Notes: generated from the sequence alone by a model not told the origin. A stretch of DNA of 64,000 nucleotides from Dehalococcoidia bacterium (GCA_026003895.1 BPIC01000003.1:175148-239147); one strand, 5' to 3'; counted from the stretch's first letter, positions 9,005-64,000 are shown. Numbers and translations are program-made.

Positions 9005-9070
9005 GGCGCTCCTTTCGCGCGCTGACCATAGGCGCTGATTGAACCACTGTCAACCGGGCCGCCGCGAACG

Positions 9071-9518
9071 CTACCCCGCTGACTGATTGAGCGACACCAG
9101 CGGCACCAGCTGGTTCCCCCCTCTGGGCACCGGCGTGCTCGTCGCCGGCGGGGTCGGACTCGGCGTGCTCGTCGCGTTCGGACCGACCGCCGGCGTGCTC
9201 GTCGCCGTCGGGCTCGGACTCGGCGTACTCGTCGCCGTCGGGGTCGGCGTCACCACAGCAAACGGCAGGCCATTCGAGACACTGTCCGCCGCCTGCCCAT
9301 ACTGCGCCGTCACCGTCACCGTCCCCGCCGTCAGGAGGTCGCTTGCCGGTATCGCCACCGAGAGCGTCGTGCTGTTCAGCACCGTGGGAGACCGGCCTGC
9401 AGCCGCCTAAAGCGCCGCCAGCGTGCGGAGCGGACCGGACATCGGCAAGCCCCGCGCAGACGGCTGCTGTTGTGACTGCCGCCGCGACGAGCGACGTCCA
9501 CCACCCGCGCCCCATCAC
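9071..9518 (-). pseudogene. small secreted protein (signal peptide + IPT/TIG-like strand region + Thr/Pro-rich repeats), apparently frameshifted
   Basis: GTG/ATG 9518/9515 follows GGGGAGGGG and encodes MMGRGWWTSLVAAAVTTAAVCAGLA. The protein-like sequence TLSVAIPASDLLTAGTVTVTAQYGQAADSVSNGLPFAVV plus (TSTPxxxPxA)x4 is in the +1 frame (listed ORF 9071..9382). That frame has an upstream stop at 9407-9409, so the shift must lie in 9383-9406. Confidence 0.35.
9116..9250 (-). repeat. 30-nt tandem repeat x4 (unit GGCGTGCTCGTCGCC... on + strand) encoding a TSTPxxxPxA linker
   Basis: Four consecutive 30-nt units, each starting GGCGT(G/A)CTCGTCGC. They translate on the minus strand to TSTPSPSPTA / TSTPAVGPNA / TSTPSPTPPA / TSTPVPRGG. 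Confidence 0.7.
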
Positions 9519-9717
9519 GTCGGCCCCTCCCCACCGCGTCGCAATGGGGGCGAGTCGAGGGTAGCGTCTCCGACCGCATCAAACGAGCGACGCTCTGTCC
9601 AGTCGCCTCGAGGAGCCGCGGTCTTGTGAAGGAGCGCCGCAAATGCGCGATGCGTGGGAGGGAGGCCGCGCTGTTGCCGTGAGGCGCCGATGGCGCGGCC
9701 CCAGCGATACGAGGAGG

Positions 9718-11205
9718 CTAGGGCGAGGGGGGTTCGTTTGCGGCATGGCGGCCGGCGATCCGGCCGAACACCATCGCCTCGGTGAGGAAGGTGCCGCCCT
9801 GATAGAGGTTTGATTGGGTAGAGCCGAGTTGGCCAGCTTCGTAGAGGCGAGGAATAGGCGCTCCGCTGGGTGTCAAGACCCGTGCTGAGGCATCACGCCG
9901 GCCGCCGCCCGTTGTGCTAACGACGGCAGGCACGATCGGGACGGCGTAGAAGGGAGGAACGACGATGGGGCGCATCGTGGCCGGAGCACGTCCGAAGTCG
10001 GGATCGGAGCCAGCCGCTGCTGCATCGTTAAACCGTTTGACCGTCGCCTCGAGGGCCGCCGGGTCGCGGCCAATCCGCACCGCCAGTTCGGCAAGCGTCG
10101 GCGCCTGCACGATCCAGCCGCGAGCCACCTCCGCGCTGTTGTCCTCGCTCCAGCGATAGCCCAGCATCGCGGTGTTCCAACCAAACCGGGCACTCGCGAA
10201 CCGGGCTTCGCGCCGGCAGGCGTCGTCCATGATGGTGTGGACGGGCAGGACAGTGGCGAGCGGCGAGTCGACCCAATGGCCGTGGACGAGACGGCGGAAA
10301 TGGTTGAACACGGCCGGCCGCCCCTCGGCCCAAAACCGTCGGTCGTCCTTCCCAATGTCGATCCAGCTCTTCCCGTTGAAGCTGATGTCGCGGAAAAACG
10401 CTGCCTCGTACTCGGGCACCTTGACGGCCGGCAGAAAGCCGCCGGTTTGGTTCGGTGTCCGTAAATGCCACATCGCCGCGCCCGCCTTCTGCAGCATCAG
10501 GAGACCGTCGCCGGTATTTGCCGGGGTGCTCAGCGCGTAGGCCTCGGCAACGCCAAAATAGTCACGGTGGAGTTGAAGATTGTTCTCGTAGCCGCCGCAG
10601 CACAGGATGACAGCGCGGCGCCCCCGGATGGCAAGCGTGGCCGCGCCCTCGCGGACCCGCACGCCTTGCACCTCAAGCGTCGCCGGGTCTTGGATCAGGT
10701 CAACCGCAGGCGAGTTGTAGCGGATGCGGACCGGACGCCGATCGAGTTGGGCCTTGAAGGCACGCCACAAGCCATAGGGGACCGGCGGCACCACACCGTA
10801 CCGGAAGCACGAGGCGCCAGGGAAATCCGGATACTCCACGCCAGCCGGCGCATCAGGAGCAATCTCGAGCGTATACCCCACCTCACGGACGAGCCGCGTG
10901 ATCCACTCCTCCAGTTCGACCCGGCCATGGCAAAACGCGAGCAGGACGTCCTCGGGCACGGGGTTTGGTTCATTCAAGGCCCGCTGGTAGGCGATCACGC
11001 CCGAGAGGTCGGTCGGAAGAAAGAGCATATTGCCGGCGCTGCGGCTCGCGCCTCCAGCGAACTCGGGCGGCATCTTCTCGACGATAAGGACGTCGAGCCT
11101 CGGGTCGGTGGCGAGCGCTTCGAGCGCCGCGCTCATGCCAGCAATGCCGAGCCCGACGACCACCACGTCGGCCTCGTCGGCCCACTCGCGCACGCTCAGC
11201 GCCAC
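9718..11205 (-). CDS. FAD-dependent oxidoreductase (FAD_binding_2; fumarate reductase / 3-ketosteroid dehydrogenase-like flavoprotein)
   Basis: N-terminal dinucleotide fold ADVVVVGLGIAGMSAALEA and C-terminal ...YEAGQLGSTQSNLYQGGTFLTEAMVFGRIAG, typical of this flavoprotein family. Confidence 0.8.
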   Translation of the reverse strand: MALSVREWADEADVVVVGLGIAGMSAALEALATDPRLDVLIVEKMPPEFAGGASRSAGNMLFLPTDLSGVIAYQRALNEPNPVPEDVLLAFCHGRVELEEWITRLVREVGYTLEIAPDAPAGVEYPDFPGASCFRYGVVPPVPYGLWRAFKAQLDRRPVRIRYNSPAVDLIQDPATLEVQGVRVREGAATLAIRGRRAVILCCGGYENNLQLHRDYFGVAEAYALSTPANTGDGLLMLQKAGAAMWHLRTPNQTGGFLPAVKVPEYEAAFFRDISFNGKSWIDIGKDDRRFWAEGRPAVFNHFRRLVHGHWVDSPLATVLPVHTIMDDACRREARFASARFGWNTAMLGYRWSEDNSAEVARGWIVQAPTLAELAVRIGRDPAALEATVKRFNDAAAAGSDPDFGRAPATMRPIVVPPFYAVPIVPAVVSTTGGGRRDASARVLTPSGAPIPRLYEAGQLGSTQSNLYQGGTFLTEAMVFGRIAGRHAANEPPSP

Positions 11206-11211
11206 CGCAGG

Positions 11212-12723
11212 TCAAAGAAACGGAGACGGTTGTCGGGGGTACCAGCGGTAGCCTTCCAGATCGCGATGGTGAGCGACATAGAAGCGCGACCAGCAGATTG
11301 GGATGACCGCCGCGTCGGCGTTCAGGATCGCTTGGGCACGGCGGACCGCCTCCTCCCAGCCCTCGCCCGCTTCGGCAATGCCACGCAGCGCGTCGTAGAG
11401 CGCCGGGTTATCGTAGGCGTAACGGACAAGCCGCATCCGACCGGGGCCAAAGTCGTGCATGATGGCGTAGATCGGGTCATAGACGCGATGGCCGCGCCCC
11501 GCCCCGGCTCGGAGCATCAGTGGCGCGAGGTTCGCCTTCGCCATCCCCACGAGGTCCGGTCGGCCACGCGACTGGCCGACGTCGATCGTCACCTCGATCC
11601 CAATCCGCGCCAACCCATCGGCGATCACCCGCGCCGCCACCTCGGCGCCGTCGCCGGCCTGCGCCACCAGCCTTGTCCGGATCGGGCCGACGCCGGCCTC
11701 GTCCAGCAGTCGCTTGGCACGATCAAGGTCCTCGTCGAACGGCCATTCGGCGGGGGCGTAGCCCGGGTTCTCGGGCTGCAGCCAGCTCTTCCAGCGCCGC
11801 GTAGCGCCGAGATAAGCCGTGGCGATCACCTCCTGATACGGGATGGCATGAGCCACGGCACGGCGGACGAGCACCTTGTCGAAAGGCGGTTCGGTCACAT
11901 CGAGATGCAGCGCTACACCGGGCGGGGTATCAGCGGGCGCAATCCGAAGCGACCGATCGGAGCGGAGCGCCACCGCCTCGTCGAGCGTCAGCCCAAGGAC
12001 GAGGTCGACCTCGCCACGACGCAGGGCGTCGATGGTTTCTCCGCGTTCACGAAAACAGCGAAGGCGCGCCTCGGGAATTGCCGCCGGTCCACGCCAATAG
12101 CCCTCCACGGCGCGGAGCACCAGTTCGTCCTCGGCGCGGCCGGCGAGCGTGTAGGGCCCGAAACCAGCGGGCCGCTCGGCGAGGAAGCCCTTTGCCCACG
12201 GGTCGGCCACGGTGCAGTGCGGCAAAACGGCGGCTGTGTCGTAGACGGAAGGCGTGCACTGTGCCATCGCCGCGGGCAGGGCCGGATTCGGGGCTTCGAG
12301 GTGAAACGCGATCGTCAGCCGGTCGAGCACTTCGATCGCTCGCTCGTCGGGGACCGACGAGACGCGCGCTACCCATTTGCCGACGTCGCGCAGCGCGAAG
12401 GCGCGCTCCCAGCCCCAGCGGACGTCTTCGGCAGTGAGCAGGTTGCCGGCGGCGCTCCGCACCCCATCGCGCAACCGAACGATCCACGTTCGCCGGTCGT
12501 CGCTCCACCACCACGCCTCGGCTAAGTCCGCGCGGAGCTGATGCCAGTCGACGCGCCGGACACCGTCCTCTCCGATCGTGCCACGCGGCGAGGTCAACTG
12601 GTCGTACATGTTCTGGAAGAGGTCGGCGCCGAGGTCATTGCGGAAGCCGGCCGGCTGCTCCATGTCGAAATTGGACGGGAGCGCCTCCACGCCGACCGTG
12701 ATGTGACGTCGCATAGCCAGCAT
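11212..12723 (-). CDS. family-5 (peptide/nickel-type) substrate-binding-protein homolog without a signal peptide
   Basis: SBP_bac_5-like over its whole length (WSDDRRTWIVRLRDGVRSAAGNLLTAEDVRWGWERA..., ...PALYDALR..., ...ICWSRFYVAHHRDLEGYRW). The likely start is ATG 12723 or 12714 (MLAMRRHITVGVE), and neither gives a hydrophobic leader. The gene is 6 nt upstream of the FAD oxidoreductase. Confidence 0.7.
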   Translation of the reverse strand: MLAMRRHITVGVEALPSNFDMEQPAGFRNDLGADLFQNMYDQLTSPRGTIGEDGVRRVDWHQLRADLAEAWWWSDDRRTWIVRLRDGVRSAAGNLLTAEDVRWGWERAFALRDVGKWVARVSSVPDERAIEVLDRLTIAFHLEAPNPALPAAMAQCTPSVYDTAAVLPHCTVADPWAKGFLAERPAGFGPYTLAGRAEDELVLRAVEGYWRGPAAIPEARLRCFRERGETIDALRRGEVDLVLGLTLDEAVALRSDRSLRIAPADTPPGVALHLDVTEPPFDKVLVRRAVAHAIPYQEVIATAYLGATRRWKSWLQPENPGYAPAEWPFDEDLDRAKRLLDEAGVGPIRTRLVAQAGDGAEVAARVIADGLARIGIEVTIDVGQSRGRPDLVGMAKANLAPLMLRAGAGRGHRVYDPIYAIMHDFGPGRMRLVRYAYDNPALYDALRGIAEAGEGWEEAVRRAQAILNADAAVIPICWSRFYVAHHRDLEGYRWYPRQPSPFL

Positions 12724-12857
12724 CCTGCCGGAACCCCGTTCCCCTGTCAAGCGAGGCCTGCGGTCGTCGAGGGCCTCTCGTGCCGCACCGCCCAAACCTT
12801 GTGTCGAACACGCCAAATCGCGTAGTAGAGAAACCAACGTTGGGATGTAGGAGCCTC

Positions 12858-13400
12858 ATGATTCGCCAAGAAGTAATCGCCTGCGACGACCAAGGACGGC
12901 CAACCGGAGCGTATGTGGACCGCGTCGAGGCGCACCGCGGCGCAGGACAGCGGCATCTTGCGATCGTCGTCCTGCTGCTTGATCCACGGGGGCGGGCGCT
13001 GTTGCAACGGCGTAAACACCCGCTCTTTGACGGCTTGTGGGACCTGACCGGGGCGACCCACCCGCTGCGTCGCCCCGGCGGACCGGACGAAACCCTCGAG
13101 GAGGCAGCCGAGCGTTGCCTCGACCAGGAATACGCCGTGACCGGTCGGGTCGACGATCTGCGCCCGATCGGCGGGTTTGCCTACTTCGCGCCGGATGGCG
13201 AGCACTGCGAGAACGAGTATTGCTATGTCGTCGCCGGCCGGCTCGTCGGGACGATCGCGGCCAAGGAGGCGGCAGCATACGAGATGCGCTGGCTGCCGCT
13301 CGCCGAGCTGCAGCACGAGCTGGACGCGGCCTCGGGAGCGTTCACGCCGTGGGCGATTGCGAGCAAGAGGATCATCGCCGGCCTCGCGGCGACCTCTTGA
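12858..13400 (+). CDS. isopentenyl-diphosphate isomerase (type 1)-like NUDIX-fold protein
   Basis: ATG 12858 follows GTAGGAG. Matches to E. coli Idi blocks: AHRGAGQRHLAIVV matches AHTADTRLHLAFSS, ENEYCYVV matches ENEVCPVF, and FTPWAI matches FSPWMV. The Idi catalytic Cys (SVCGHP) aligns to GATHP here. Confidence 0.65.
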   Translation: MIRQEVIACDDQGRPTGAYVDRVEAHRGAGQRHLAIVVLLLDPRGRALLQRRKHPLFDGLWDLTGATHPLRRPGGPDETLEEAAERCLDQEYAVTGRVDDLRPIGGFAYFAPDGEHCENEYCYVVAGRLVGTIAAKEAAAYEMRWLPLAELQHELDAASGAFTPWAIASKRIIAGLAATS

Positions 13401-13425
13401 CAAACGCCGTCAGGAGGAGTAGTCT
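13397..13425 (+). promoter_or_regulatory. sigma70-like promoter (TTGACA-17-TAGTCT)
   Basis: TTGACA at 13397-13402 overlaps the stop of the preceding gene. A 17-nt spacer follows, then TAGTCT at 13420-13425. The predicted TSS is near 13432. Confidence 0.4.
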
Positions 13426-13488
13426 GGTGCTGTAAGGTACAGGCGTTCCTCGGAGCGCCGAGTATCGACCGGCAAGGAGGCTCAGGTG

Positions 13489-13545
13489 ATGATGCCTCGC
13501 AAGACTCCGCTCTCGTTCTTCGGGAGATTTCAAGTCGACAGGTAA
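13489..13545 (+). CDS. 18-codon small ORF (MMPRKTPLSFFGRFQVDR) inside the candidate RNA
   Basis: AAGGAGG at 13474-13480 lies 5 nt before GTG 13486 and 8 nt before ATG 13489. The TAA at 13543-13545 is immediately followed by a long hairpin. Confidence 0.3.
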   Translation: MMPRKTPLSFFGRFQVDR

Positions 13546-13715
13546 CGCCCTACGCCACGGTGGTGTAGGGCGGTAGCCGGGAGCCCGCTTCGGGGGCGAC
13601 ACCGCAGCCGGCAGTCTCAATCGTCTTACGTGACGACCTTGCTGAGACGCCAAGCCGCCTCAGGCCCCGCGGTCAACGGGCTTTCGAAGCGGGATTTTGG
13701 AACCACGGATCGTTC

Positions 13716-13746
13716 GGGCGGCGCACTTGCGCCGCCCTTTCGTTTG
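13716..13746 (+). terminator. intrinsic terminator
   Basis: Perfect 9-bp GC stem GGGCGGCGC / GCGCCGCCC with loop ACTT, followed by TTTCGTTTG. Confidence 0.7.
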
Positions 13747-13753
13747 CCGCGCG

Positions 13754-13783
13754 TTGACGCTCTCCGCGGACCGCTCGTAGGAT
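13754..13783 (+). promoter_or_regulatory. sigma70-like promoter for npdG (TTGACG-18-TAGGAT)
   Basis: The hexamers and spacing sit directly after the terminator and about 30 nt before the GGAGACGGAG SD sequence of the 13812 gene. Confidence 0.4.
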
Positions 13784-13811
13784 CTCCCCACTTTTGGCCG
13801 GGAGACGGAGC

Positions 13812-14495
13812 ATGGCAGGTGCGCGGACGATTGCGGTGTTGGGCGGTACGGGCGATCAAGGCTACGGGCTGGCATTGCGCTGGGTGAAGGCGGGGGAGCA
13901 CGTTCTGATCGGCTCGCGCGTTGCTGAGCGCGCCGAGGAGGCGGCCCGCAACATCCGCGAGGCACTCGGCGGCCAAGGCACGATCGAGGGCCGCGAGAAC
14001 CCTGCCGCCGTCGCCGAGGCCGACATCGTCGTCGTTTCGGTGCCCTTTTCGGCGCAGGCCACGACGCTCAAGACCTGCCGTGATTCATTCCGCGAGGGAC
14101 AGATCCTGTGCGACCTCACCGTCGCCCTCGCGAGCAATATCGGCGGCCCCGCGACCCGCATGATCATTCCGCCGCAGGGTTCCGCTGCCGAGCAGGCAGC
14201 CGATTTGGTTCCGAAAGGCGTGAAAGTCGTCTCCGCGTTCCAAAATGTCTCCGCGGAAGCGCTTGCCAATCTCGACGAAGAGATCGAGTGCGATGTGATT
14301 GTCTGCGGCGCGAACGATGCCAAACCAGTGATTCGCGACCTCATTCACCACCTGCCCGGCGCCCGCTACGTCGACGGCGGGCCGCTTTACAACTCGCGCA
14401 TCGTCGAGTCGATCACTGCGCTGCTGATCGGCTTCAACATCCGCTATAAGGTGCCGCACAGCGGTATCCGCATCACTGGCATCCCGGCAGCGTAG
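13812..14495 (+). CDS. npdG: NADPH-dependent F420 reductase (F420H2:NADP+ oxidoreductase)
   Basis: MAGARTIAVLGGTGDQGYGLALRW Rossmann start, with ...VVVSVPF...AEQAA...VKVVSAFQNV...CDVIVCGAND..., typical of NpdG/Fno. The ATG follows GGAGACGGAG. Confidence 0.85.
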   Translation: MAGARTIAVLGGTGDQGYGLALRWVKAGEHVLIGSRVAERAEEAARNIREALGGQGTIEGRENPAAVAEADIVVVSVPFSAQATTLKTCRDSFREGQILCDLTVALASNIGGPATRMIIPPQGSAAEQAADLVPKGVKVVSAFQNVSAEALANLDEEIECDVIVCGANDAKPVIRDLIHHLPGARYVDGGPLYNSRIVESITALLIGFNIRYKVPHSGIRITGIPAA

Positions 14496-25666: not shown

Positions 25667-25722
25667 GGCCCCTCGTCGGGGGCGCCCCGCTCTCGCAGGA
25701 GCGGGCAGCTTGGGGGTGAGGA

Positions 25723-26679
25723 TTGACAGCTCGCTCGTCCAAAATCAAGCTGGGTGTCGGCCTGAATGCCGTGCCGGATCGCACGCCGGACCGATTCTGG
25801 AGCTGGATCGATCTCTGCGAGCGCGAAGGGATCGATTCGATCTGGATTTCGGACCGCGTCACCGGGCCGCAGCCAAGCCTCGAGCCGATTACGGCGTTCG
25901 CCGCCATCGCCGGCCGGACACGCCGTTTGAAGTTTGGGCCGAGCGTCCTCGTCCTGCCGCTCCGCCAGCCGGTCGTGCTCGCCAAGGAGGTCGCCACCGT
26001 CGACTTCCTCTCGAATGGCCGCATGCTGCTCGCCATCGGCGTCGGGCTCGACGATGAGCGCGAATGGCAGGCTTGCGGTGTTCCGAAGCGCGAGCGCGGC
26101 GGCCGCACCGACGAAGCGATCGTCCTGATGCGCCGGTTGTGGACGGAGGAGCGCGTCACCTTCAACGGCCGCTATTTTCAGACGGAGGACGTGGCCATCA
26201 TGCCCAAGCCGATTCAGCAGCCGGTGCCGATTTGGATCGGCGGTCACACCGAGGCAGCACTGCGGCGCACCGGCACGCTCGGCGATGGCTGGCTCCCGTC
26301 GTTCGTCACCCCCGAGGAATTTGCCGAAGGATTGGCGATGATCCACCGCTACGAGCGCGAGGCGAACCGCGAGATCGAAGAGGACCACTTCGGGACCTTC
26401 ATCCTCTACCATGTGGCGGGGAGCCGCGAGCAAGCGATCGAACGGGCCGGGCGCCACCTCGTGCGGCCAGCGCGCCTGCGCGACACCTCGCTCGATAAGA
26501 CCTACTACGCGCTCGGAACAGCGGCCGACGTCCGTAACGCCGTCGAGCAGTACCTCGCGGTCGGGGCAACCAAGTTCGTCATGCGCCCAGTTGGGCCGGT
26601 CGAAGGGATCGCCGAGCAGCTCGAGGCGTTGGGGCGCGACGTCATCCCCTCGTTCACCCCGCTCGCCGCGAGGAACTGA
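25723..26679 (+). CDS. LLM-class (luciferase-like) F420-dependent oxidoreductase
   Basis: TTG start after GGGGGTGAGGA. Blocks: GIDSIWISDRV, LKFGPSVLVLPLRQPVVLAKEVATVDFLSNGRMLLAIGVG, FNGRYF and PVPIWIGG. Confidence 0.8.
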   Translation: MTARSSKIKLGVGLNAVPDRTPDRFWSWIDLCEREGIDSIWISDRVTGPQPSLEPITAFAAIAGRTRRLKFGPSVLVLPLRQPVVLAKEVATVDFLSNGRMLLAIGVGLDDEREWQACGVPKRERGGRTDEAIVLMRRLWTEERVTFNGRYFQTEDVAIMPKPIQQPVPIWIGGHTEAALRRTGTLGDGWLPSFVTPEEFAEGLAMIHRYEREANREIEEDHFGTFILYHVAGSREQAIERAGRHLVRPARLRDTSLDKTYYALGTAADVRNAVEQYLAVGATKFVMRPVGPVEGIAEQLEALGRDVIPSFTPLAARN

Positions 26680-34429: not shown

Positions 34430-35020
34430 CTAGGAGCCGGCACTATCCACAAACACGGTCGGCGAGTAGAACGTCTCGCCGGAAGAGGACGCTGTGACAA
34501 ACACCGTCGCCTCTGCTGAGACCGTGCCACCGCAGTTGTCGGCCTGCACCCGGATCACGGTCTGCCCCGCGGTGCTGAACACATAGGTGGCGCTGGACGT
34601 GTTCTGCCCGAGGCTCGGCGCTGGCGTCCAGCTGTAGCCAATCGGCAGGGTGGCATCCGCTGGGCTGGGGGCCGCAGAGAACGCGGCCGGCTCATTGACG
34701 GCGACATTGCCGGGGCCGCTGATGCTGACACTGGCGAGCGCCGTGGTGCAGCTTGGCTGAACTCCCTGGCCACAGAGCAGTCCCGCGCAGAGAGTCACTT
34801 GGTTGCGGACGGTACCGGCGGCCGGCTGAGCCATGACGTTTTGCAGTCGGAGGCCGGGCGCCGTGAGGAGCCCGCCGCCGCCAGAAAGGACGTTCCGCGG
34901 AATCGATTCGCCGGCGGCGAAGGCGATGCCGCCGGCCAACAGGCCGAGCAGCACCAAGGGCGCGACCACCAACACCAGCCAGCGACTGCGAGGTAGCGAG
35001 CGGATGTGAGGAATCATCAC
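34430..35020 (-). CDS. secreted SGGGG-motif protein with C-terminal PKD-like domain (partner of 35043..36428)
   Basis: Signal anchor RSRWLVLVVAPLVLLGLLAGGIAFAAG. The motif NVLSGGGGLLTAPGLRLQNVMAQPAAGTVRNQVTLCAGLL is homologous to SVISGGGGRASGATYAVDVVIGQPFAGPTTSTNRSVFAGFL of ORF 45086. PKD-like ...VNEPAAFSAAPSP...YSWTPAP...ATYVFSTAGQTVIRVQADN. The start follows AAGGGAGA. Confidence 0.6.
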   Translation of the reverse strand: MMIPHIRSLPRSRWLVLVVAPLVLLGLLAGGIAFAAGESIPRNVLSGGGGLLTAPGLRLQNVMAQPAAGTVRNQVTLCAGLLCGQGVQPSCTTALASVSISGPGNVAVNEPAAFSAAPSPADATLPIGYSWTPAPSLGQNTSSATYVFSTAGQTVIRVQADNCGGTVSAEATVFVTASSSGETFYSPTVFVDSAGS

Positions 35021-35042
35021 GCGTCTCCCTTGTCACGTCTGG

Positions 35043-36428
35043 CTAGTTGCATGCCGTCGCCGCCGTACTGCCATTGCTCAGGGCTTGGAGTGAGGCGCCG
35101 AAATTGTGAACGCAGATCAGCCCGCCGGTGCCAGTGTGCTTCTGACCTGGGGAGTACCACACTTCGGAGGTCGCGACGCGGATGTTCTGAAAGAATGGGG
35201 CACTCCCGGACTCGAACGTGAACGCGCCTGCCGACAAGCCACCTTTGATCGACGAGGAGGTGATTTGTGGGTTGCCGGCGATCGACAAGGAGATCGCGCG
35301 AAAGTCGCCACAGATGAAGGAGCCATCGACTTGCGCGACCGAGCGGGAAAGGAACATACCGAAGCCGGTGCCGGTTGCACCGCTGCAGTTGTCGTTGAGA
35401 TCGGCGTTGGCGAGTCCGGCCACCAGCCGGCTGTTCTCGATTCGTGGGTAGTAGGATTGTATGCCATTGACGTTCGCAAACGCCGAGTTGACGACCGTTG
35501 CCCCGTGAGCGCGAAGCACGCTGTTCCTGATCAGCACTTCACCATCGCCGACGTACACCGCGGTATGTCCATTTCCGCCATTGCCACCGGCGGTGGCGTG
35601 GACGTTGTCGATCACGGTATTGCGCGATGTGCCAAAGGCGCCCACGGCAATCGAGCTTGCTGTCGCGCCGCTGTTGAACACGGCGATGTCACTCAGCGCC
35701 GACCAATCGTTCAGCAAGACGAGCGAGGCGGCGCCGCCGACGGTCGTCGCAGAGATCACACCCGTGATGATCGTCGTCGTCGGCCCAGAGCCCTTGACGT
35801 GAACGTATTCAGGAAGTGCAACGGTCTGCGTCTCGGTGTAGGTGCCAGGCGCAACCCAGACAAGGTAGCGGCGGCTCGACGACGCGTTTGTGATGCTCGC
35901 TGTCGCCGAATAGACCGACGTGTAGTCGCCACCGCTCTTGGCGACGGTGACGACGTATTGGTAGCCGCCGATCCCGCTCGGTTTGTCGGTGATGCCTGAC
36001 CACGGAACGCTCTGGGCTTGGAAGGCGTAGGGCACCGACGCAAGGCGTTGACGCGGCAGCGAGGTGAAGCCGCTCCCCGTATCGACGGCGACTCCGAGGT
36101 AGCGCGTGGTATCCGAGAAAAACGCGGCGCTGAGTGGCGAGATGCTTCCCAGCAGAACGCTGAAGAAGCCACTGCTCACTTGGACATTGTTCTGCGTCTC
36201 TTGCCAAAGCGGCGAGCCGCCAGTAGAGGTCTCGTAGAGCCCGAATCGCAGATTGACGGTTCCGCTGATCGGCTGGCCAGCGCTATCGGAGAGATAGCCT
36301 TGGTAGCTCATCAGCCCGGGGGCGCCGCTCTGGGTCACGAAGCCCTGGCCAAACGCAGTGATACCTGCGATAACGCCGACCGTCGTCGCGGCCGCGACGG
36401 CGGCAAGAAGGAGAGCGAGACGTAACAC
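35043..36428 (-). CDS. secreted fiber-like protein with right-handed parallel beta-helix C-terminal domain
   Basis: GTG 36428 follows GAGAGGAG, then signal VLRLALLLAAVAAATTVGVIAGITAFG. The N-terminal module SYQGYLSDSAGQPISGTVNLRFGLYETSTGGSPLW...PRQRLASVPYAFQA is paralogous to the 43803 protein. This is followed by VAKSGGDYTSVYSA...VAPGTYTE and repetitive Gly/Asn/Ser-rich beta-helix turns. Confidence 0.65.
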   Translation of the reverse strand: MLRLALLLAAVAAATTVGVIAGITAFGQGFVTQSGAPGLMSYQGYLSDSAGQPISGTVNLRFGLYETSTGGSPLWQETQNNVQVSSGFFSVLLGSISPLSAAFFSDTTRYLGVAVDTGSGFTSLPRQRLASVPYAFQAQSVPWSGITDKPSGIGGYQYVVTVAKSGGDYTSVYSATASITNASSSRRYLVWVAPGTYTETQTVALPEYVHVKGSGPTTTIITGVISATTVGGAASLVLLNDWSALSDIAVFNSGATASSIAVGAFGTSRNTVIDNVHATAGGNGGNGHTAVYVGDGEVLIRNSVLRAHGATVVNSAFANVNGIQSYYPRIENSRLVAGLANADLNDNCSGATGTGFGMFLSRSVAQVDGSFICGDFRAISLSIAGNPQITSSSIKGGLSAGAFTFESGSAPFFQNIRVATSEVWYSPGQKHTGTGGLICVHNFGASLQALSNGSTAATACN

Positions 36429-36618
36429 GGCGAGACTCCTCTCGTAGCGAGTTTCGCCCCGCGCCGGCCGACTAAGCGGCTCCCGCCCGCTTCTTTTTTG
36501 CAGGACGAATAGTTGGCCATTGTAGAGCCATCGCACGATCTGTCAAGCGCTCGACCGCGGGAGGACGCCCGACGCAACACGAGCGACGATCGCGGCTTCG
36601 CAGCGATGGCGTGCGAGG

Positions 36619-37134
36619 TTAGCGGCGGATGTTTTGGAGATCCCAGTCCGGGCGGATCTTCCGGCTGATTTCGCGGAAGTCTTGGCGCAACTCTTCGAGC
36701 GTCGGCCGACCCCAGAACCAATAGCCGTTGTAAATCTTGTGGATCGTCAGATCGGGGTAGAGGGTGAAACTATAGGGAATGATCGGGTCGTGACGGGGGT
36801 CGGACGTCTCCTGCAGGTCGAGTTGCCGCTGCACCTTGCGCTCGTAGTCACAGAGGAAAGGGAATTCCGCACCGAGGCCGGCGCGAAAGGCGGCGCTCAC
36901 CTCCGGCGGGTCGACGCTCATCACGAGCAGGTTGGTATACGCGACCTTAATTTCCTTATGGAGCTCGACGAGCCCCCGCAGCTCCTGCTGGCACTTCGGT
37001 CACCACCAGCCTCGATAGATGATCAGCGCGAGCGGGTCCTTGCCGGCGAAGTCGCTCAAGCGGCGAAGTGCGCCCGTGTGGTCGGGTACTTCGAAATCCG
37101 GAAACCTGCAGCCGACCTGAAGTTGCGGGATCAT
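36619..37134 (-). CDS. AhpC/TSA-redoxin (PRX-like) family thiol oxidoreductase with in-frame TGA at the first redox Cys: candidate selenoprotein (or nonsense pseudogene)
   Basis: ATG 37134 lies 4 nt after AGGAGG. Sequence MIPQLQVGCRFPDFEVPDHTGALRRLSDFAGKDPLALIIYRGWW[TGA 37002-37000]PKCQQELRGLVELHKEIKVAYTNLLVMSVDPPEV... is in frame with listed ORF 36619..36924. The family motif is YRG.WCP.C. Confidence 0.6.
36960..36985 (-). promoter_or_regulatory. SECIS-like hairpin downstream of the in-frame UGA
   Basis: The mRNA GGAGCUGCGGGGGCUCGUCGAGCUCC starts 14 nt after the UGA. It has a 6-bp lower stem GGAGCU/AGCUCC, a one-nucleotide bulge, a 3-bp upper stem (CGG/UCG, including one G-U pair) and a G-rich apical loop GGGCUCG. 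This was folded by eye only. Confidence 0.35.
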
Positions 37135-37231
37135 CCATCCTCCTGCGGGTGGCACATCAAGCGGATCCTAGCACGAGCGCACCGGGCCGCCCTCCCGTAT
37201 GATTGGTCGTAGCAGCCACCGAGGAGGGGCC

Positions 37232-37939
37232 GTGCCAAGCTCGCGCGTCCGCCGCGGCGACCACGGGGCGCCGCTCGGCCAGGCCGCCGAAGATTATTTG
37301 AAGGCGGTCTACAACTTGCAGGCAAACGGTCAAGAGGCGACGACCTCGGCCCTAGCCGGCGTGCTCGAAATCAGCGACGCCTCGGTGACGAGCATGAGCA
37401 AGCGGCTCGCTCAGCTAGGCCTCGTCGTCCACACGCGCTATCACGGCGTCGAGCTGACACCCGCCGGCCGCAAGATCGCCCTCGAGATCGTCCGCCACCA
37501 CCGCCTGCTCGAGCTCTACCTCGCCGAAGTGCTCGGCTATCGCTGGGACGAAGTGCATGCCGAGGCCGACCGGCTCGAGCATGTCATCTCGGAGGAGTTT
37601 GAAGAGCGGATCGACATTCTCCTTGGCCGGCCAACCGTCGATCCCCACGGCGATCCGATCCCGACGAAAGACCTTGAGCTCGTCGAGCCAAGCTTGATTC
37701 CCCTCTCCCGGCTCGATCCCGGGCGGCCGGCGGTGATCCAGCGTGTCAGCGACCGTGACCCGGCGTTGCTGCGTTACCTCGCCACGCTCGGCATGTTTCC
37801 CAGCGTCTCGGTCGTCGTCCGCGAACGCGCCCCTTTCGGCGGCCCGATTCACCTCCGCCTTGGCGACCGCGAGCATGCCGTCGGGCCTGAGCTCGCCGCG
37901 CAGGTCTTTGTCCGCCTCGTCGACGATGAGGAACCGTAG
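37232..37939 (+). CDS. DtxR/IdeR/MntR-family metal-dependent transcriptional regulator with C-terminal FeoA/SH3-like domain
   Basis: GTG follows GAGGAGG. AEDYLKAVYNLQ...TTSALAGVLEISDASVTSMSKRLAQLGLV (wHTH), HRLLELYL...W..VH.EADRLEH (metal sites), and a C-terminal RPAVIQRVSDRDPALLRYLATLGMFP. The gene is divergent from the redoxin gene. Confidence 0.85.
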   Translation: MPSSRVRRGDHGAPLGQAAEDYLKAVYNLQANGQEATTSALAGVLEISDASVTSMSKRLAQLGLVVHTRYHGVELTPAGRKIALEIVRHHRLLELYLAEVLGYRWDEVHAEADRLEHVISEEFEERIDILLGRPTVDPHGDPIPTKDLELVEPSLIPLSRLDPGRPAVIQRVSDRDPALLRYLATLGMFPSVSVVVRERAPFGGPIHLRLGDREHAVGPELAAQVFVRLVDDEEP

Positions 37940-39215: not shown

Positions 39216-39346
39216 CCATCCTCCCGGCGGTCGTGCTGGCGCCATTGTACTCGCCAGTCGGCCCGTCGTTGGACGGTCATCTGGACATCGACGAGAAGTA
39301 CGGCGAGCGTACAATGAGAGCAGTTTGAGCGCGCCGGGAGGGTTCC

Positions 39347-40378
39347 GTGCATTTCAGCCTGTACATCAACCCGCAAACGAGCGGTCCCGACGACGACCTG
39401 AAGGTGATTCGCGCCGTCACGCAGCACATCGAGTATGCCGACCAGAATGGCTTTGACGCGGTCTATCTCACCGAGCACCATACGACCGGCTACAACGCCT
39501 TCGCCGATCCATTTGTGTTTGGCGCGTATCTGGCGAACCGAATCCGGCGGATGACGCTGGGCTTTTCGGTGGCGGTGCTGCCGTTCCATCACCCGCTGCG
39601 TTTCGCCACCCACTGCAATTTGCTCGACAACTTCTACGAGGGGCGATTCATCGCTGGCTTCGGCACCGGGAACAGCCCGCTCGAATATGAGGCGTTCGGC
39701 ATCCCGCTGGACGAAAAACGCGAGATCGTCAACGAGGCGATCGAGGTCGTGCTCGGCTGCTGGCGGGGCAACTATGAGCATCACGGCAAGTACTTCAATG
39801 TCAAAGTGGAGCGGATTATCCCCGCGCCCTACACCAAACCGCACCCGAAAGTGACCCGCGCTGTCACCAGCGACGAGTCGCTCGTCGACACGGCCCGCCG
39901 GGGCTGGCCGGTGCTGCTTGGCCGCTTTCCGGAGCAGCGCATCAAACAGTATGTCGACCGCTACCGCGAGGTGTTGGAAGCGAGCAATCATCCGGACGAC
40001 GTGATTCGCTCCTGCCTCGATTGGGTCACGGTGCTAAAACTGGTCTACCTCGCGGAGAGCGAAGAGCAGGCCTACGAGGAGCTGCGGCCGTCGCTCGTGC
40101 GCTATTTGATCCAAGCAGCGAAGGCGAACTCGTCCGACTACATCCTCGAGGAGCAGGCGAACGAGCAGGCTGACGAGTTCATCGCTCGCGCGATGCTCGT
40201 CGGGACGCCCAAGCAGGTGGCTGAGCGGATCGAGTCGTACGCGGCCGTCGGCGTCAGCAACATGATGATCTGGACCGCATTCGGGTCGATGCCCCACGAG
40301 CAGACGGTGCGGACGTTGCGGCTATTCGCCGAAGAGGTGATGCCGCACTTCCAGCGCGTCCCAGCCGGCGTGCGCTAA
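39347..40378 (+). CDS. LLM-class flavin/F420-dependent oxidoreductase
   Basis: GFDAVYLTEHH, MTLGFSVAVLPFHHPLRFA, GRFIAGFGTG, YFNV and KPHPKV blocks of luciferase-like monooxygenases. Confidence 0.8.
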   Translation: MHFSLYINPQTSGPDDDLKVIRAVTQHIEYADQNGFDAVYLTEHHTTGYNAFADPFVFGAYLANRIRRMTLGFSVAVLPFHHPLRFATHCNLLDNFYEGRFIAGFGTGNSPLEYEAFGIPLDEKREIVNEAIEVVLGCWRGNYEHHGKYFNVKVERIIPAPYTKPHPKVTRAVTSDESLVDTARRGWPVLLGRFPEQRIKQYVDRYREVLEASNHPDDVIRSCLDWVTVLKLVYLAESEEQAYEELRPSLVRYLIQAAKANSSDYILEEQANEQADEFIARAMLVGTPKQVAERIESYAAVGVSNMMIWTAFGSMPHEQTVRTLRLFAEEVMPHFQRVPAGVR

Positions 40379-52164: not shown

Positions 52165-52226
52165 GGGTTCCTCCTTCCACGCGGCTGCAGCATAGCGCGC
52201 TATGATGGCCAGCGCGGAGGGGGAGC

Positions 52227-53315
52227 ATGAAGCTCAGTATCGGAACGACGCTCTGGCGAACCCAAGCCGACGGCGACACGCGGCCCAAGCACATTCTGGA
52301 GGACTGGCACAGCGAGATCGAGCACTTGCTCTGGCAGGCGCGGATGGCCGATGTTGGCGGCTTCGAGAATCTCTGGCTGACCGAACATCATTTCTCGCAT
52401 CACTCCTCGGCCAGTGCGCCCTCGGTCATTCTTGCCGCGATGGCATCGATCACCCGCCGTATTGGCCTCGCCTACGGGATCGCCCTCTTGCCAATGCACC
52501 ACCCGGTCTTGCTGGCGGAAGAGATGATGTGGGTCGACCACCTCAGCAAGGGCCGGCTGGTAGTTGGCGTCGGGCGCGGGCATACCAACATCGAGTTTGC
52601 CGCCTTCGGCGTAACCCACGAGACCGAGCGCGACTCCTTCGTCGAAGCGCTCACGATCATCACGACGGCGTTGCGCGGCGAGCCGGTCGAGTTCCAAGGC
52701 AAAATCTGGAAGACACCCTTCCTTTATATAACGCCAGGACCGTACCAGCGACCAAGTCCGCCGCTCCATATGGTGACGACTTCCGACTGGTCGATGCGTC
52801 AAGCAGTGGCGTTTCGAGCCGCGCCGATCTTGGGGATCGACGCGCCAGCGGTGCTCAAGCAGCAGATGGAGACCTTTCGGGCGTTGTGTGTCGAAGCTGG
52901 GCTGCCGGAGGAGACGATCGAGGATCTCGCCGGCCGGGCCAAGTGCACCCGCAAGATCTCGGTCTCCGACAGCCGCGCCGAAGCAGAGGAAGAGGTGTAC
53001 CGCGGGATGGCCGAGGCAGACGAGGCGTGGTTCCGCTACTCCAAGGCGGTGGGAGACCGCTCCTTTTTCGACCCTTGGACGCCCGCCACGGCGGACTCAT
53101 TCCGCGACGGATGGAAGTCCTCGACGCCAGGCAAGGACCTTGCCCACGTTATCAGCGGGACGCCCGATGACGTCGTGGACGCGCTGCGCGCCTTGGAAGA
53201 AGAGACGGGCATTCGCCATGTCTCGACCGGTGTTTCGAACCACGGAATGCGGCGCTCGTTCGCCGAGAAACAGATGAAGCTCTTCATCGAGGAGGTCATT
53301 CCGCGCCTCAGCTAG
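52227..53315 (+). CDS. LLM-class flavin-dependent oxidoreductase
   Basis: GFENLWLTEHHF, IGLAYGIALLPMHHPVLLAEE, GRLVVGVGRG and GKIWKTP. Confidence 0.8.
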   Translation: MKLSIGTTLWRTQADGDTRPKHILEDWHSEIEHLLWQARMADVGGFENLWLTEHHFSHHSSASAPSVILAAMASITRRIGLAYGIALLPMHHPVLLAEEMMWVDHLSKGRLVVGVGRGHTNIEFAAFGVTHETERDSFVEALTIITTALRGEPVEFQGKIWKTPFLYITPGPYQRPSPPLHMVTTSDWSMRQAVAFRAAPILGIDAPAVLKQQMETFRALCVEAGLPEETIEDLAGRAKCTRKISVSDSRAEAEEEVYRGMAEADEAWFRYSKAVGDRSFFDPWTPATADSFRDGWKSSTPGKDLAHVISGTPDDVVDALRALEEETGIRHVSTGVSNHGMRRSFAEKQMKLFIEEVIPRLS

Positions 53316-61772: not shown

Positions 61773-61844
61773 GTCGCACTCGCTCTCTCGCGCTGGAAGA
61801 ACCTGTGAACGGTCACTCGCAGCATTCCGCGATGGGAGGAAGTG

Positions 61845-64000
61845 ATGGCGTACGCGCACTCGAAGAACGCTGCCGGGGTGCGGCAGGATCTGGCCGCCCA
61901 TTTGCAGGCAGTCGCGGCGTTGGCGCGGGAGTTTGCCGAGCCATTCGGCGGTGGCGACCTCGCCTACGTCGCTGGCCTCTGGCATGACCTCGGCAAGTTC
62001 CACCCGGCATGGCAAGACTATCTCCTGCAGTCGGAAGCCGAAGAAGAAGCGGCCAAACGCGAGGGACGGAAAGCGCGACGGTTTCGCGCGCCGGACCACA
62101 AGGGGGCCGGGGCGCTCTTGGCAGCCGAGCAAGGGGTTCAGCCGGCTGCACTGCTCATCCAAGCGCATCACGGTGGGCTGAGGGCGCAGGGGGAATTTCG
62201 GGTATGGCTAAAGCAGCAGGGGACACGGCCAGAGACGAATGAGGCGCTGGCTCGGGCGCGCGAGGCGCTGGCTGAGCTCGTCCCACGACAGTCGATCCAG
62301 TTGCCAGACTCGGCACGGCGCGATGCTCTGGCCGCCGAGCTGTTTCTCCGCATGGTCTACGCGGCGTTGGTCGATGCCGATTCGATCGACACCGAGCGCC
62401 ACCGCGAGCCAACGCGGGCCGAGGTGCGGACCGGCTGGCTGCCGCTTGCCACGCTTTGGGAGCGCCTCGCGCGCGACCAGGAGCAGCTGGTTGCCAGCGC
62501 TGCGGACACGCCGGTCAACCGGGTGCGGCGGGAGGTCTATGAGGCGTGCCTTGCCGCTGCTGAGGAACCACCCGGCCTGTTTCGTTTGGCGGTGCCGACC
62601 GGCGGCGGGAAGACGCGGTCGGGGATGGCGTTTGCGCTGCAGCATGCCTTGCGGCATGGGCTGCGTCGTGTCATCGTGGCGGTGCCGTACATCAGCATCA
62701 CCGAGCAGACGGCGGCGGTCTACCGCGCGATCTTCGAGCGCGAGCTAAGCGACCGGGCGGTGCTGGAGCACCATAGCGCCCTCGAGTTGCCCGAGGCAGA
62801 GGAGGAGGAAGGGGATGAGTGGAGCCTCTGGCAGCGACTGGCTGCGGAGAACTGGGATGCGCCCGTCGTTGTGACGACGACAGTCCAACTCTTCGAGAGC
62901 CTGTTTGCGAGCGGGCGATCGAAAACGCAGAAAGTGCATCGACTGGCGCAGAGCGTGATCCTCCTCGATGAGGCGCAAGCGCTTCCGGTGCCGCTCCTCA
63001 CGCCTGTGCTGGATGTGCTGCGCGAGCTGGTGACGCACTACGGCGCGACGGTGGTGCTCTCGACTGCGACCCAACCTGCCTTCGAGATGCTGCCGGTCTT
63101 TCGGGATTTGGAGGCGCGGGAGATCGGGGCGGACCCGCAACGCTGGTTCGCGGCGTTACGACGGGTGCGCTACGAGTGGCGGCGTGAGCCGCTTGGCTGG
63201 GACGCGATTGCGGCGATCCTCCGCGAGACGCCGCAGGCGCTCGCGGTCGTCAATACGAAGAACGATGCGCTGGCGCTGCTCGATGCGCTCGACGACCGAG
63301 AGGCGCTCCATCTCTCGACGCTGCTGTGCGGGGCACATCGGCAGGACACGATCGAGGAGATTGGGCGGCGGCTCCGGGCTGGAGAGCCCTGCCGGGTTGT
63401 GTCCACCCAAGTGGTCGAGGCGGGGATTGATCTCGACTTTCCGCTGGTGGTGCGCGCGTTCGGGCCGCTGGACTCGGTGATCCAAGCGGCGGGGCGCTGC
63501 AATCGCGAAGGCCGGTTGGCGGAAGGGCGAGTTGTGGTAGTGGAGCCGGCGGAGGGGAAGCTTCCCCCGGGCGCCTATCGCACGGCAGCAGGGGTGACCG
63601 CGGCGGTCATCGGTGATCAGCCCGTCGATCCGAACGACCCGGCGGTGGCGCGGCGCTACTACGAGCATCTCTTTCGAGTGGTCGAGCCGGTGACCGACGC
63701 TAAAGAGGTCCAACCGGAGCGGCGTAACCTCAACTTCCCGGAGACAGCGAAGCGCTTTCGCATGATTGACGACGACACCGAGGCGGTCGTGATTACGACC
63801 TATGGCACGGCGGAGGAGCAAGCGCGGGTGCGGGCGTTGGTGGAGGAGCTGCGGACGCGCCAAGGGAACCCACGCGAGACTCTGCGGGCGTTGCAGCCAT
63901 TCATCGTCAATCTGCGGCGTCGCGCGGCGGACACGGTGCGGCACTTCATCGTTCCGATCGTCGACGGGGTCGGCGAATGGATCCGGCCGGACGGCTACGA
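61845..64000 (+). CDS. cas3: CRISPR-associated helicase/nuclease Cas3 (N-terminal HD domain + SF2 helicase), 3' end beyond window
   Basis: ATG 61845 follows GGGAGGA. The frame stays open for all 718 codons to the window edge, which is why it is missing from the stop-delimited ORF track. HD domain: AAHLQAV...LWHDLGKF...PDHKGAG...IQAHHGGL...VDADSIDTE. Helicase: motif I VPTGGGKT, II LLDEAQ, III STAT, VI VIQAAGRCNREG. Confidence 0.85.
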   Translation, partial: MAYAHSKNAAGVRQDLAAHLQAVAALAREFAEPFGGGDLAYVAGLWHDLGKFHPAWQDYLLQSEAEEEAAKREGRKARRFRAPDHKGAGALLAAEQGVQPAALLIQAHHGGLRAQGEFRVWLKQQGTRPETNEALARAREALAELVPRQSIQLPDSARRDALAAELFLRMVYAALVDADSIDTERHREPTRAEVRTGWLPLATLWERLARDQEQLVASAADTPVNRVRREVYEACLAAAEEPPGLFRLAVPTGGGKTRSGMAFALQHALRHGLRRVIVAVPYISITEQTAAVYRAIFERELSDRAVLEHHSALELPEAEEEEGDEWSLWQRLAAENWDAPVVVTTTVQLFESLFASGRSKTQKVHRLAQSVILLDEAQALPVPLLTPVLDVLRELVTHYGATVVLSTATQPAFEMLPVFRDLEAREIGADPQRWFAALRRVRYEWRREPLGWDAIAAILRETPQALAVVNTKNDALALLDALDDREALHLSTLLCGAHRQDTIEEIGRRLRAGEPCRVVSTQVVEAGIDLDFPLVVRAFGPLDSVIQAAGRCNREGRLAEGRVVVVEPAEGKLPPGAYRTAAGVTAAVIGDQPVDPNDPAVARRYYEHLFRVVEPVTDAKEVQPERRNLNFPETAKRFRMIDDDTEAVVITTYGTAEEQARVRALVEELRTRQGNPRETLRALQPFIVNLRRRAADTVRHFIVPIVDGVGEWIRPDGY

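Follow-up and report, generated by a model that had tools for sequence, protein, structure and literature searches.

The window analysed here, a 64-kb (64,000-nucleotide) stretch of DNA from a Dehalococcoidia bacterium, carries on its minus strand, at 37134..36619, an open reading frame for a full-length protein of the AhpC/TSA fold, interrupted by a single in-frame TGA at the column of the catalytic cysteine. From its ATG the frame runs through 44 sense codons to the TGA and through a further 126 to a TAA, contains no frameshift and no stop beyond the one TGA, and translates as MIPQ...YRGWW*PKCQQELRGL..., the asterisk standing for the TGA. A first-pass annotation of the same DNA had described this layout of an ATG, an AGGAGG 4 nt upstream, 44 codons and a TGA, and every coordinate and count in it proved correct on retranslation. 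The elements of the gene, with selenocysteine (Sec) written as U, and its divergent neighbour are as follows.

36619..37134, minus strand: predicted complete selenoprotein gene, 171 codons plus TAA, encoding a redoxin of the Prx/BCP fold with a U45-P-K-C48 centre
37139..37144, minus strand: Shine-Dalgarno sequence AGGAGG, with a 4-nt spacer to the redoxin ATG
37134..37132, minus strand: start codon ATG of the redoxin gene
37000..37002, minus strand: in-frame UGA, the predicted Sec codon for residue 45, aligned with the invariant Cys of 246 homologs
36991..36993, minus strand: UGC for Cys48, the predicted resolving Cys at +3 from Sec, in the Prx peroxidatic Cys position in alignments with PDB structures
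36621..36619, minus strand: stop codon TAA of the redoxin gene
37199..37939, plus strand: MntR/DtxR-family metal-dependent regulator (Pfam Fe_dep_repress, Fe_dep_repr_C and FeoA), divergent from the redoxin gene

When Cys is substituted for the stop, the Pfam AhpC-TSA profile (PF00578) matches residues 7-131 over positions 1-121 of its 124 (E = 1.5e-20). The match is continuous across the TGA, in agreement with the first-pass description of the product as a full-length AhpC/TSA-redoxin, and Pfam Redoxin (PF08534) also matches the joined sequence. TGA is an ordinary stop codon in this organism, ending 10 of the 31 other Pfam-supported open reading frames in the window, and a scan of the window for further in-frame TGA candidates gave only adjacent genes sharing a frame.

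A 64-bp intergenic region separates the redoxin gene from the MntR-like gene, whose product scores 213.6 bits against the NCBIfam MntR model, under the 350-bit cutoff. The same pairing is found on four contigs from relatives (L201, L202, L203 and L215), and its conservation suggests that the MntR-like neighbour may place the redoxin under metal- or oxidative-stress-linked regulation. On the other side of the gene, a pectinesterase-like ORF of 497 aa (35043-36536) and a PKD-domain ORF (34430-35020), both within 34430-36546 on the minus strand, lie between the redoxin gene and a Na+/H+ exchanger gene in the window only, preceded by a near-consensus sigma-70-like promoter (TTGACA-16-TACAAT, 11 of 12 matches, 36546..36519); in L201, L215 and L216 the exchanger directly follows the redoxin gene. 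Gene order from 22.8 to 42 kb of the window is largely syntenic with that in L201 and L215. Elsewhere the window encodes an 850-aa protein with a cytochrome P460 domain and CXXCH haem-binding motifs (6497-9049, minus strand), three luciferase-like monooxygenase paralogs and three family-5 solute-binding proteins (coordinates listed: 39329-40378, 25720-26679 and 52206-53315 (+)), and a Cas3 with HD nuclease, DEAD helicase and Cas3 C-terminal domains (61809-63998, plus strand) that exits the window end, beyond which a CRISPR-Cas locus probably continues.

Entry GIW07143.1 of Dehalococcoidia bacterium KatS3mg060, a "hypothetical protein", covers the last 100 residues of the redoxin, and the HisD encoded in the window shows 100% identity to GIW07158.1 from that MAG. 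Other members of the family have been deposited in similarly truncated form as "hypothetical protein" or "peroxiredoxin family protein", among them MCS6803315.1 and GEU73_10130 (L206 10001-10384, WHTR01000050.1), and the misannotation of the family is systematic. In every relative, gene callers give a 44-aa ORF followed by one of 100-133 aa, just as they would if the locus made two products, a 44-residue peptide ended by the UGA and a polypeptide of the C-terminal 100-126 residues translated from an internal start. We consider such a division highly improbable, as the internal start varies (GTG or ATG at codons 71/72, or elsewhere) and is unconserved across clades, the modelled fold cannot be reached by a fragment that lacks the first beta-strands and the turn of the active site, and the 44 codons correspond to a conserved N-terminal part of the AhpC-TSA domain.

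The joined sequence, used as a query against the protein collection, returned thousands of full-length homologs, the best of the Cys forms being 60-66% identical, alignable end to end, and carrying Cys at the TGA column in every case. A query with the C-terminal part only returned shorter and closer proteins, at 77-97% identity, and on the contigs of these relatives a called 44-residue ORF ending in TGA sits ahead of each. All nine of the close-relative contigs (L201-L205 and L215-L218), which come from independent samples, share the 44 codons, the TGA and the remainder of the gene. The first-pass annotation had set against its own reading the possibility of close relatives that carry TGC and lack the hairpin discussed below; in nine of nine the codon is TGA and the hairpin is kept. 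Pairwise Nei-Gojobori comparison of the five distinct sequences (window, L201, L202, L204 and L205) gave dN/dS of 0.07-0.44 for codons 1-44, before the TGA, and of 0.04-0.22 for codons 46-170, after it, with dS of at least 0.7 throughout and often saturated. Both sides of the TGA are under purifying selection.

These observations bear directly on the alternative raised in the first-pass annotation, namely that a nonsense mutation or sequencing error has turned TGC into TGA in an ordinary Cys redoxin. The presence in GenBank of just a 100-residue "hypothetical protein" would be in keeping with a pseudogene, as would the absence of Sec machinery from the window. A pseudogene or an assembly error is nonetheless untenable, because the TGA recurs in nine contigs and dN/dS is low in both halves of the gene (0.04-0.44) at dS of at least 0.7. 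The identical TGA appears in assemblies made independently from several samples, as well as in over 100 divergent homologs, and the frameshifts and additional stops of a decaying gene are absent. The alternative is thus effectively refuted, and the probability that we leave to it is next to nothing; the gene is better regarded as an intact one in which the TGA has been maintained.

The wider family was sampled in metagenomes with the degenerate DNA pattern G-[aromatic]-W-TGA-P-K-C-Q, which matched at least 120 stretches; among the matches listed, at least 109 encode complete homologs with the TGA at the redox column. This pattern, which demands U-P-K-C-Q, supplied the majority of the distant Sec forms, over 100 in number, so that the uniformity of their motif is partly built in. 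Sec forms found without it are L004, from a Binatia MAG, L206, from a Chloroflexi MAG, and L207 and L208, both with U-P-K-E, while a scan of genome contigs gave relatives all at 55% identity or less, just one of them a Sec form. The U45 column accordingly holds Cys in 246 homologs and TGA in the Sec forms, close and distant alike, which is the Cys/Sec alternation that the first-pass annotation had proposed to look for at this position.

The same annotation had placed the TGA at the first Cys of a WCPxC motif. The conserved Cys column is as it described, but the CxxC motif is not, for the Cys homologs read C-P-K-E or C-P-K-D in 246 of 246 cases and are monothiol. A Cys at +3 occurs in none of these 246 Cys forms and is present in the UPKC Sec clade. 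Strict covariation between Sec and the +3 Cys was considered and rejected, as the metagenome pattern demanded UPKC and two Sec forms, L207 (5993-5995) and L208 (1074-1076), are U-P-K-E and have no +3 Cys. In a neighbour-joining tree of 293 sequences, constructed without bootstrap support, the UPKC Sec forms fall in one clade of 89, with a short branch at its base for the window group; L207 and L208 each group with Cys forms instead, L207 as sister to P0001. This topology suggests, provisionally, at least three Sec lineages. L207 and L208 have the appearance of independent Cys/Sec switches. The window redoxin itself is about as similar to the best Cys form (65%) as to the best of the Sec forms that lie beyond its group (64%). 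The L207 contig also carries, at 8774-14038, TIR-, SLATT- and DUF4231-domain genes clustered in what resembles an anti-phage defence island.

Decoding of UGA as Sec in bacteria calls for a SECIS hairpin, for which a published model allows 3-9 nt in the loop and 4-16 bp in the stem, asks for a G within the first two loop positions, usually then G or U, and sets a distance of 16-37 nt from the UGA to the loop and an energy no higher than -7.5 kcal/mol (PMC13188914). Two overlapping hairpins downstream of the UGA have to be compared.

36960..36976, minus strand: best-supported candidate SECIS core, GGGGCUC-GUC-GAGCUCC, seven base pairs capped by a GUC triloop, spanning nt 27-43 with the U of the UGA as nt 1
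36960..36985, minus strand: 6+3-bp bulged hairpin proposed in the first-pass annotation, 26 nt, which the window's own sequence adopts at minimum energy

The first-pass proposal of a SECIS-like hairpin downstream of the UGA holds for the first of these structures and fails for the second. The 26-nt bulged form starts 14 nt past the UGA and has an energy of -11.8 kcal/mol, which 34 of 200 dinucleotide shuffles match (z = -0.94). Mutations have altered its 5' arm in L202 and in L201, a relative of 97% identity; not above chance on its own and unconserved in the 5' arm, it was rejected as the SECIS. A 4-bp hairpin at nt 13-24 was likewise rejected as the SECIS of the window, being broken in L201. 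The 7-bp hairpin at 36976..36960, which has its 3' arm in common with the bulged form so that the two are mutually exclusive, folds to -9.4 kcal/mol (z = -2.96, with none of 200 shuffles equal to it) and agrees with every constraint of the published model, with a spacing of 30 nt, a stem of 7 bp and a GUC loop.

It is this 7-bp stem, with a GUN triloop, that is conserved across the close relatives, every one of which retains 7 of 7 pairs, while L207 has six. Among Cys-form genes 7 of 7 pairs are found in just 2 of 79, so that the hairpin, which was expected to be kept only where there is a TGA, is kept in all close relatives with TGA and yet appears in two Cys genes. Some of the Cys-form genes encode the same peptide, GLVELH, and many nearly the same (EGLVELH or EGLVQLH), and they are still mostly unpaired. 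The energy of the region is -9.8 kcal/mol in the window clade versus -4.2 kcal/mol in the Cys forms; of the two nearest Cys forms for which DNA was compared, one, L210, also folds well here, to -11.6 kcal/mol, in a different structure. Compensatory changes are seen at pair 30-40 (G-C to A-U in L202) and at pair 28-42 (G-C to C-G in L207), and several pairs of the stem switch among G-C, G-U and A-U. The covariation score of the hairpin was reached by 53 of 500 shuffles of the seven sequences and is not significant, and the covariation argument in the window clade is no more than suggestive. Across the five distinct relatives, codons 47-60 show the least synonymous variation, 0.13-0.22 versus 0.48 elsewhere, and the third-position nucleotide of the hairpin loop is free to vary. 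Folding of the whole region showed a modest shift (mean z of -0.61 in Sec forms versus +0.09 in Cys forms), to which we give no weight, and Rfam searches at gathering or permissive thresholds returned zero relevant families. On this comparative evidence the stem at 36976..36960 is the most likely SECIS of the redoxin gene.

Two large Sec clades possess a different hairpin, at nt 13-30 and hence 14 nt nearer the UGA, with loops of AGUU, AGUUGC or AGGUCC. Its 5-bp core is paired in all 34 distinct sequences, and where Val gives way to Thr (GUG to ACG), CGC has changed synonymously to CGU, the two changes together converting a G-C pair to A-U and restoring the pairing. All 38 of 38 sequences of these clades share one codon at each of codons 5-8, in comparison with 30-57% minor-codon use in the flanking codons. 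The comparative evidence for a SECIS is stronger in the larger Sec clades than in the window clade. The hairpin of L207 and L208, at nt 26/27-43, is in the same place as that of the window clade.

None of the roughly 40 larger ORFs scanned in the 64-kb window is selA, selB or selD, the window contains no tRNA gene, and ARAGORN found no tRNA-Sec on any of the compared loci. Sec decoding and tRNA-Sec do occur in Chloroflexi (PMC1794560; PMC5389517), and the Sec trait is plausible in this organism for that reason, which is no proof of it. The sequence alone cannot distinguish which amino acid is inserted, and the UGA might be recoded as a residue other than Sec, either Cys, by an opal-suppressing tRNA-Cys of the selC* type, or Trp or Arg, by a near-cognate tRNA. 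Some bacteria do have a selC* tRNA-Cys(UCA) that mimics tRNA-Sec, with dedicated SelB copies, although the reports concern mainly delta-proteobacteria and a few other groups, in genomes with the full Sec apparatus (PMC5389517). The conserved hairpin with its G-U loop fits SelB-dependent decoding under the published model (PMC13188914), the resolving Cys gained solely in UGA forms corresponds to the usual chemistry of selenenylsulfide centres, and leaky read-through would leave the constraint on downstream synonymous sites unexplained. Insertion of another residue is in our judgement unlikely, if less remote than the two alternatives weighed above.

We conclude that the locus is very probably one intact gene for a Sec-containing thiol/selenol oxidoreductase of the peroxiredoxin fold, in which UGA is read as Sec. 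The conservation of the TGA, the selection on both sides of it, the Cys/Sec alternation and the synonymous constraint all back the central claim of the first-pass annotation, a redoxin with a UGA-encoded Sec and a downstream SECIS. Translation would begin at the ATG at 37134, and at the UGA (37002..37000) the ribosome would insert Sec rather than terminate, with a SelB-type elongation factor carrying Sec-tRNA(Sec) brought in by a hairpin in the coding part of the mRNA, most likely the 7-bp stem with the GUC loop at 36976..36960, 30 nt past the UGA.

The probable function can be approached through the structure of the family. P0006, the closest Cys homolog, stands in for the window protein in an AlphaFold model (pLDDT 93.8); there the redox Cys starts helix alpha-1, and the model superposes on the structures of BCP, AhpE and ResA with TM-scores of 0.7-0.85 (0.78-0.85 for BCP and AhpE). 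In alignments with PDB sequences, W-U-P-K-C lines up with W-C-P-H-C of ResA, and against T-P-G-C of Mycobacterium tuberculosis BcpB U45 falls on the Thr and C48 on the peroxidatic Cys. The redoxin is without a signal or membrane anchor and has a conserved C-terminal extension, YNGYWFWGRP...RPDWDL. The Cys forms are monothiol proteins whose Cys occupies the first-Cys position of thioredoxin, and are not canonical peroxiredoxins. In the window protein Sec45 would sit at the N-terminus of helix alpha-1, where thioredoxin has the first Cys of its CxxC, with Cys48 one helical turn beyond it in the peroxidatic position of peroxiredoxins. From the chemistry of the family, Sec45 is likely to act as the nucleophile on an oxidised substrate, which may be a peroxide, a disulfide or a sulfenic acid, after which Cys48 would resolve the Sec45 intermediate as a selenenylsulfide that a cellular reductant would then reduce.

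The redoxin gene leaves the understanding of Sec decoding unchanged. Its interest lies in the more than 100 metagenomic copies that have been mis-called, through which selenium use in Dehalococcoidia-type bacteria of soil and subsurface would have been under-counted, and in the side-by-side occurrence of Cys and Sec forms, a resolving Cys confined to Sec forms, and two SECIS positions, which make the family useful for studying how a Sec codon is acquired. We also put forward, tentatively and judging it slightly less probable than its opposite, that these sequences form an uncatalogued subfamily of Prx-fold selenoproteins, widespread in soil and the subsurface and ranging over MAGs labelled Dehalococcoidia, Chloroflexi and Binatia and many unbinned contigs. 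Under this proposal Sec would have arisen, or been kept, in at least three lineages with monothiol C-P-K-E/D ancestors, the main clade would have acquired, together with Sec, a resolving Cys in the peroxidatic position, and the SECIS would have moved by about 14 nt, the hairpin loop starting at nt 20 in one set of Sec clades and at nt 34 in the window clade. If true, it would offer a compact natural system for the co-evolution of a SECIS and a Sec/Cys pair within a coding sequence.

Prx-like UxxC selenoproteins with the PF00578 domain have been catalogued since 2004-2008 and known for some twenty years. The published classes include the "Prx-like thiol:disulfide oxidoreductase" selenoproteins (PF00578, UxxC or UxxU), represented by Geobacter sulfurreducens WP_010940744.1, "Prx-like 1" (pfam00578, UxxC), with 225 GOS sequences, and the "Redoxin family protein" class (PF08534, UxxC) (PMC2398784; PMC13188914). 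The window redoxin combines a PF00578 domain (at the E-value given above, 1.5e-20) with a U-P-K-C motif, as in the definition of the Prx-like class, and by domain and motif it fits an unannotated member of this known UxxC class. The two have in common PF00578 together with PF08534, Sec as the first residue of UxxC, widespread Cys homologs and a SECIS within the coding sequence, and for the published class as well a repeated origin of Sec forms from Cys forms has been inferred (PMC2398784, PMC13188914, PMC1794560). The family described here differs in that its Cys forms are C-P-K-E/D and two of its Sec lineages U-P-K-E, and in its host, a Dehalococcoidia MAG as opposed to the typical delta-proteobacteria and Clostridia, the comparison being by description of domain and motif. 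It differs also in that the database entries found for it are truncated and unflagged as selenoproteins, and in that the redoxin falls below every NCBIfam cutoff.

No NCBIfam model matches the window redoxin at its cutoff, ResA (NF002854) reaching 34.4 of 170 bits and PrxU (NF040737) 19 of 270. The best score is that of the SelL-related redox protein (NF040769), which is likewise Prx-like and selenoprotein-related, but with 43.7 bits against a cutoff of 120 and a match confined to residues 11-111 the redoxin is no member of that family. With the ResA/TlpA-type CxxC oxidoreductases it shares the alignment of W-C-P-H-C with W-U-P-K-C and a similar structure; in contrast to them it has neither signal nor anchor and carries the C-terminal extension, and identity is only about 20%. 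Canonical peroxiredoxins, including the TxxU selenoprotein PrxU of Eubacterium acidaminophilum, share with it the Pfam AhpC-TSA domain and the fold, as the TM-scores to BCP and AhpE show, but in them the redox residue is the last of PxxxTxxC/U, whereas here Sec stands at the position of the Thr and the redoxin lacks the PxxxTxxC(U) active site. The peroxidatic position of those enzymes is here taken by Cys48, and in all of the Cys homologs by Glu or Asp.
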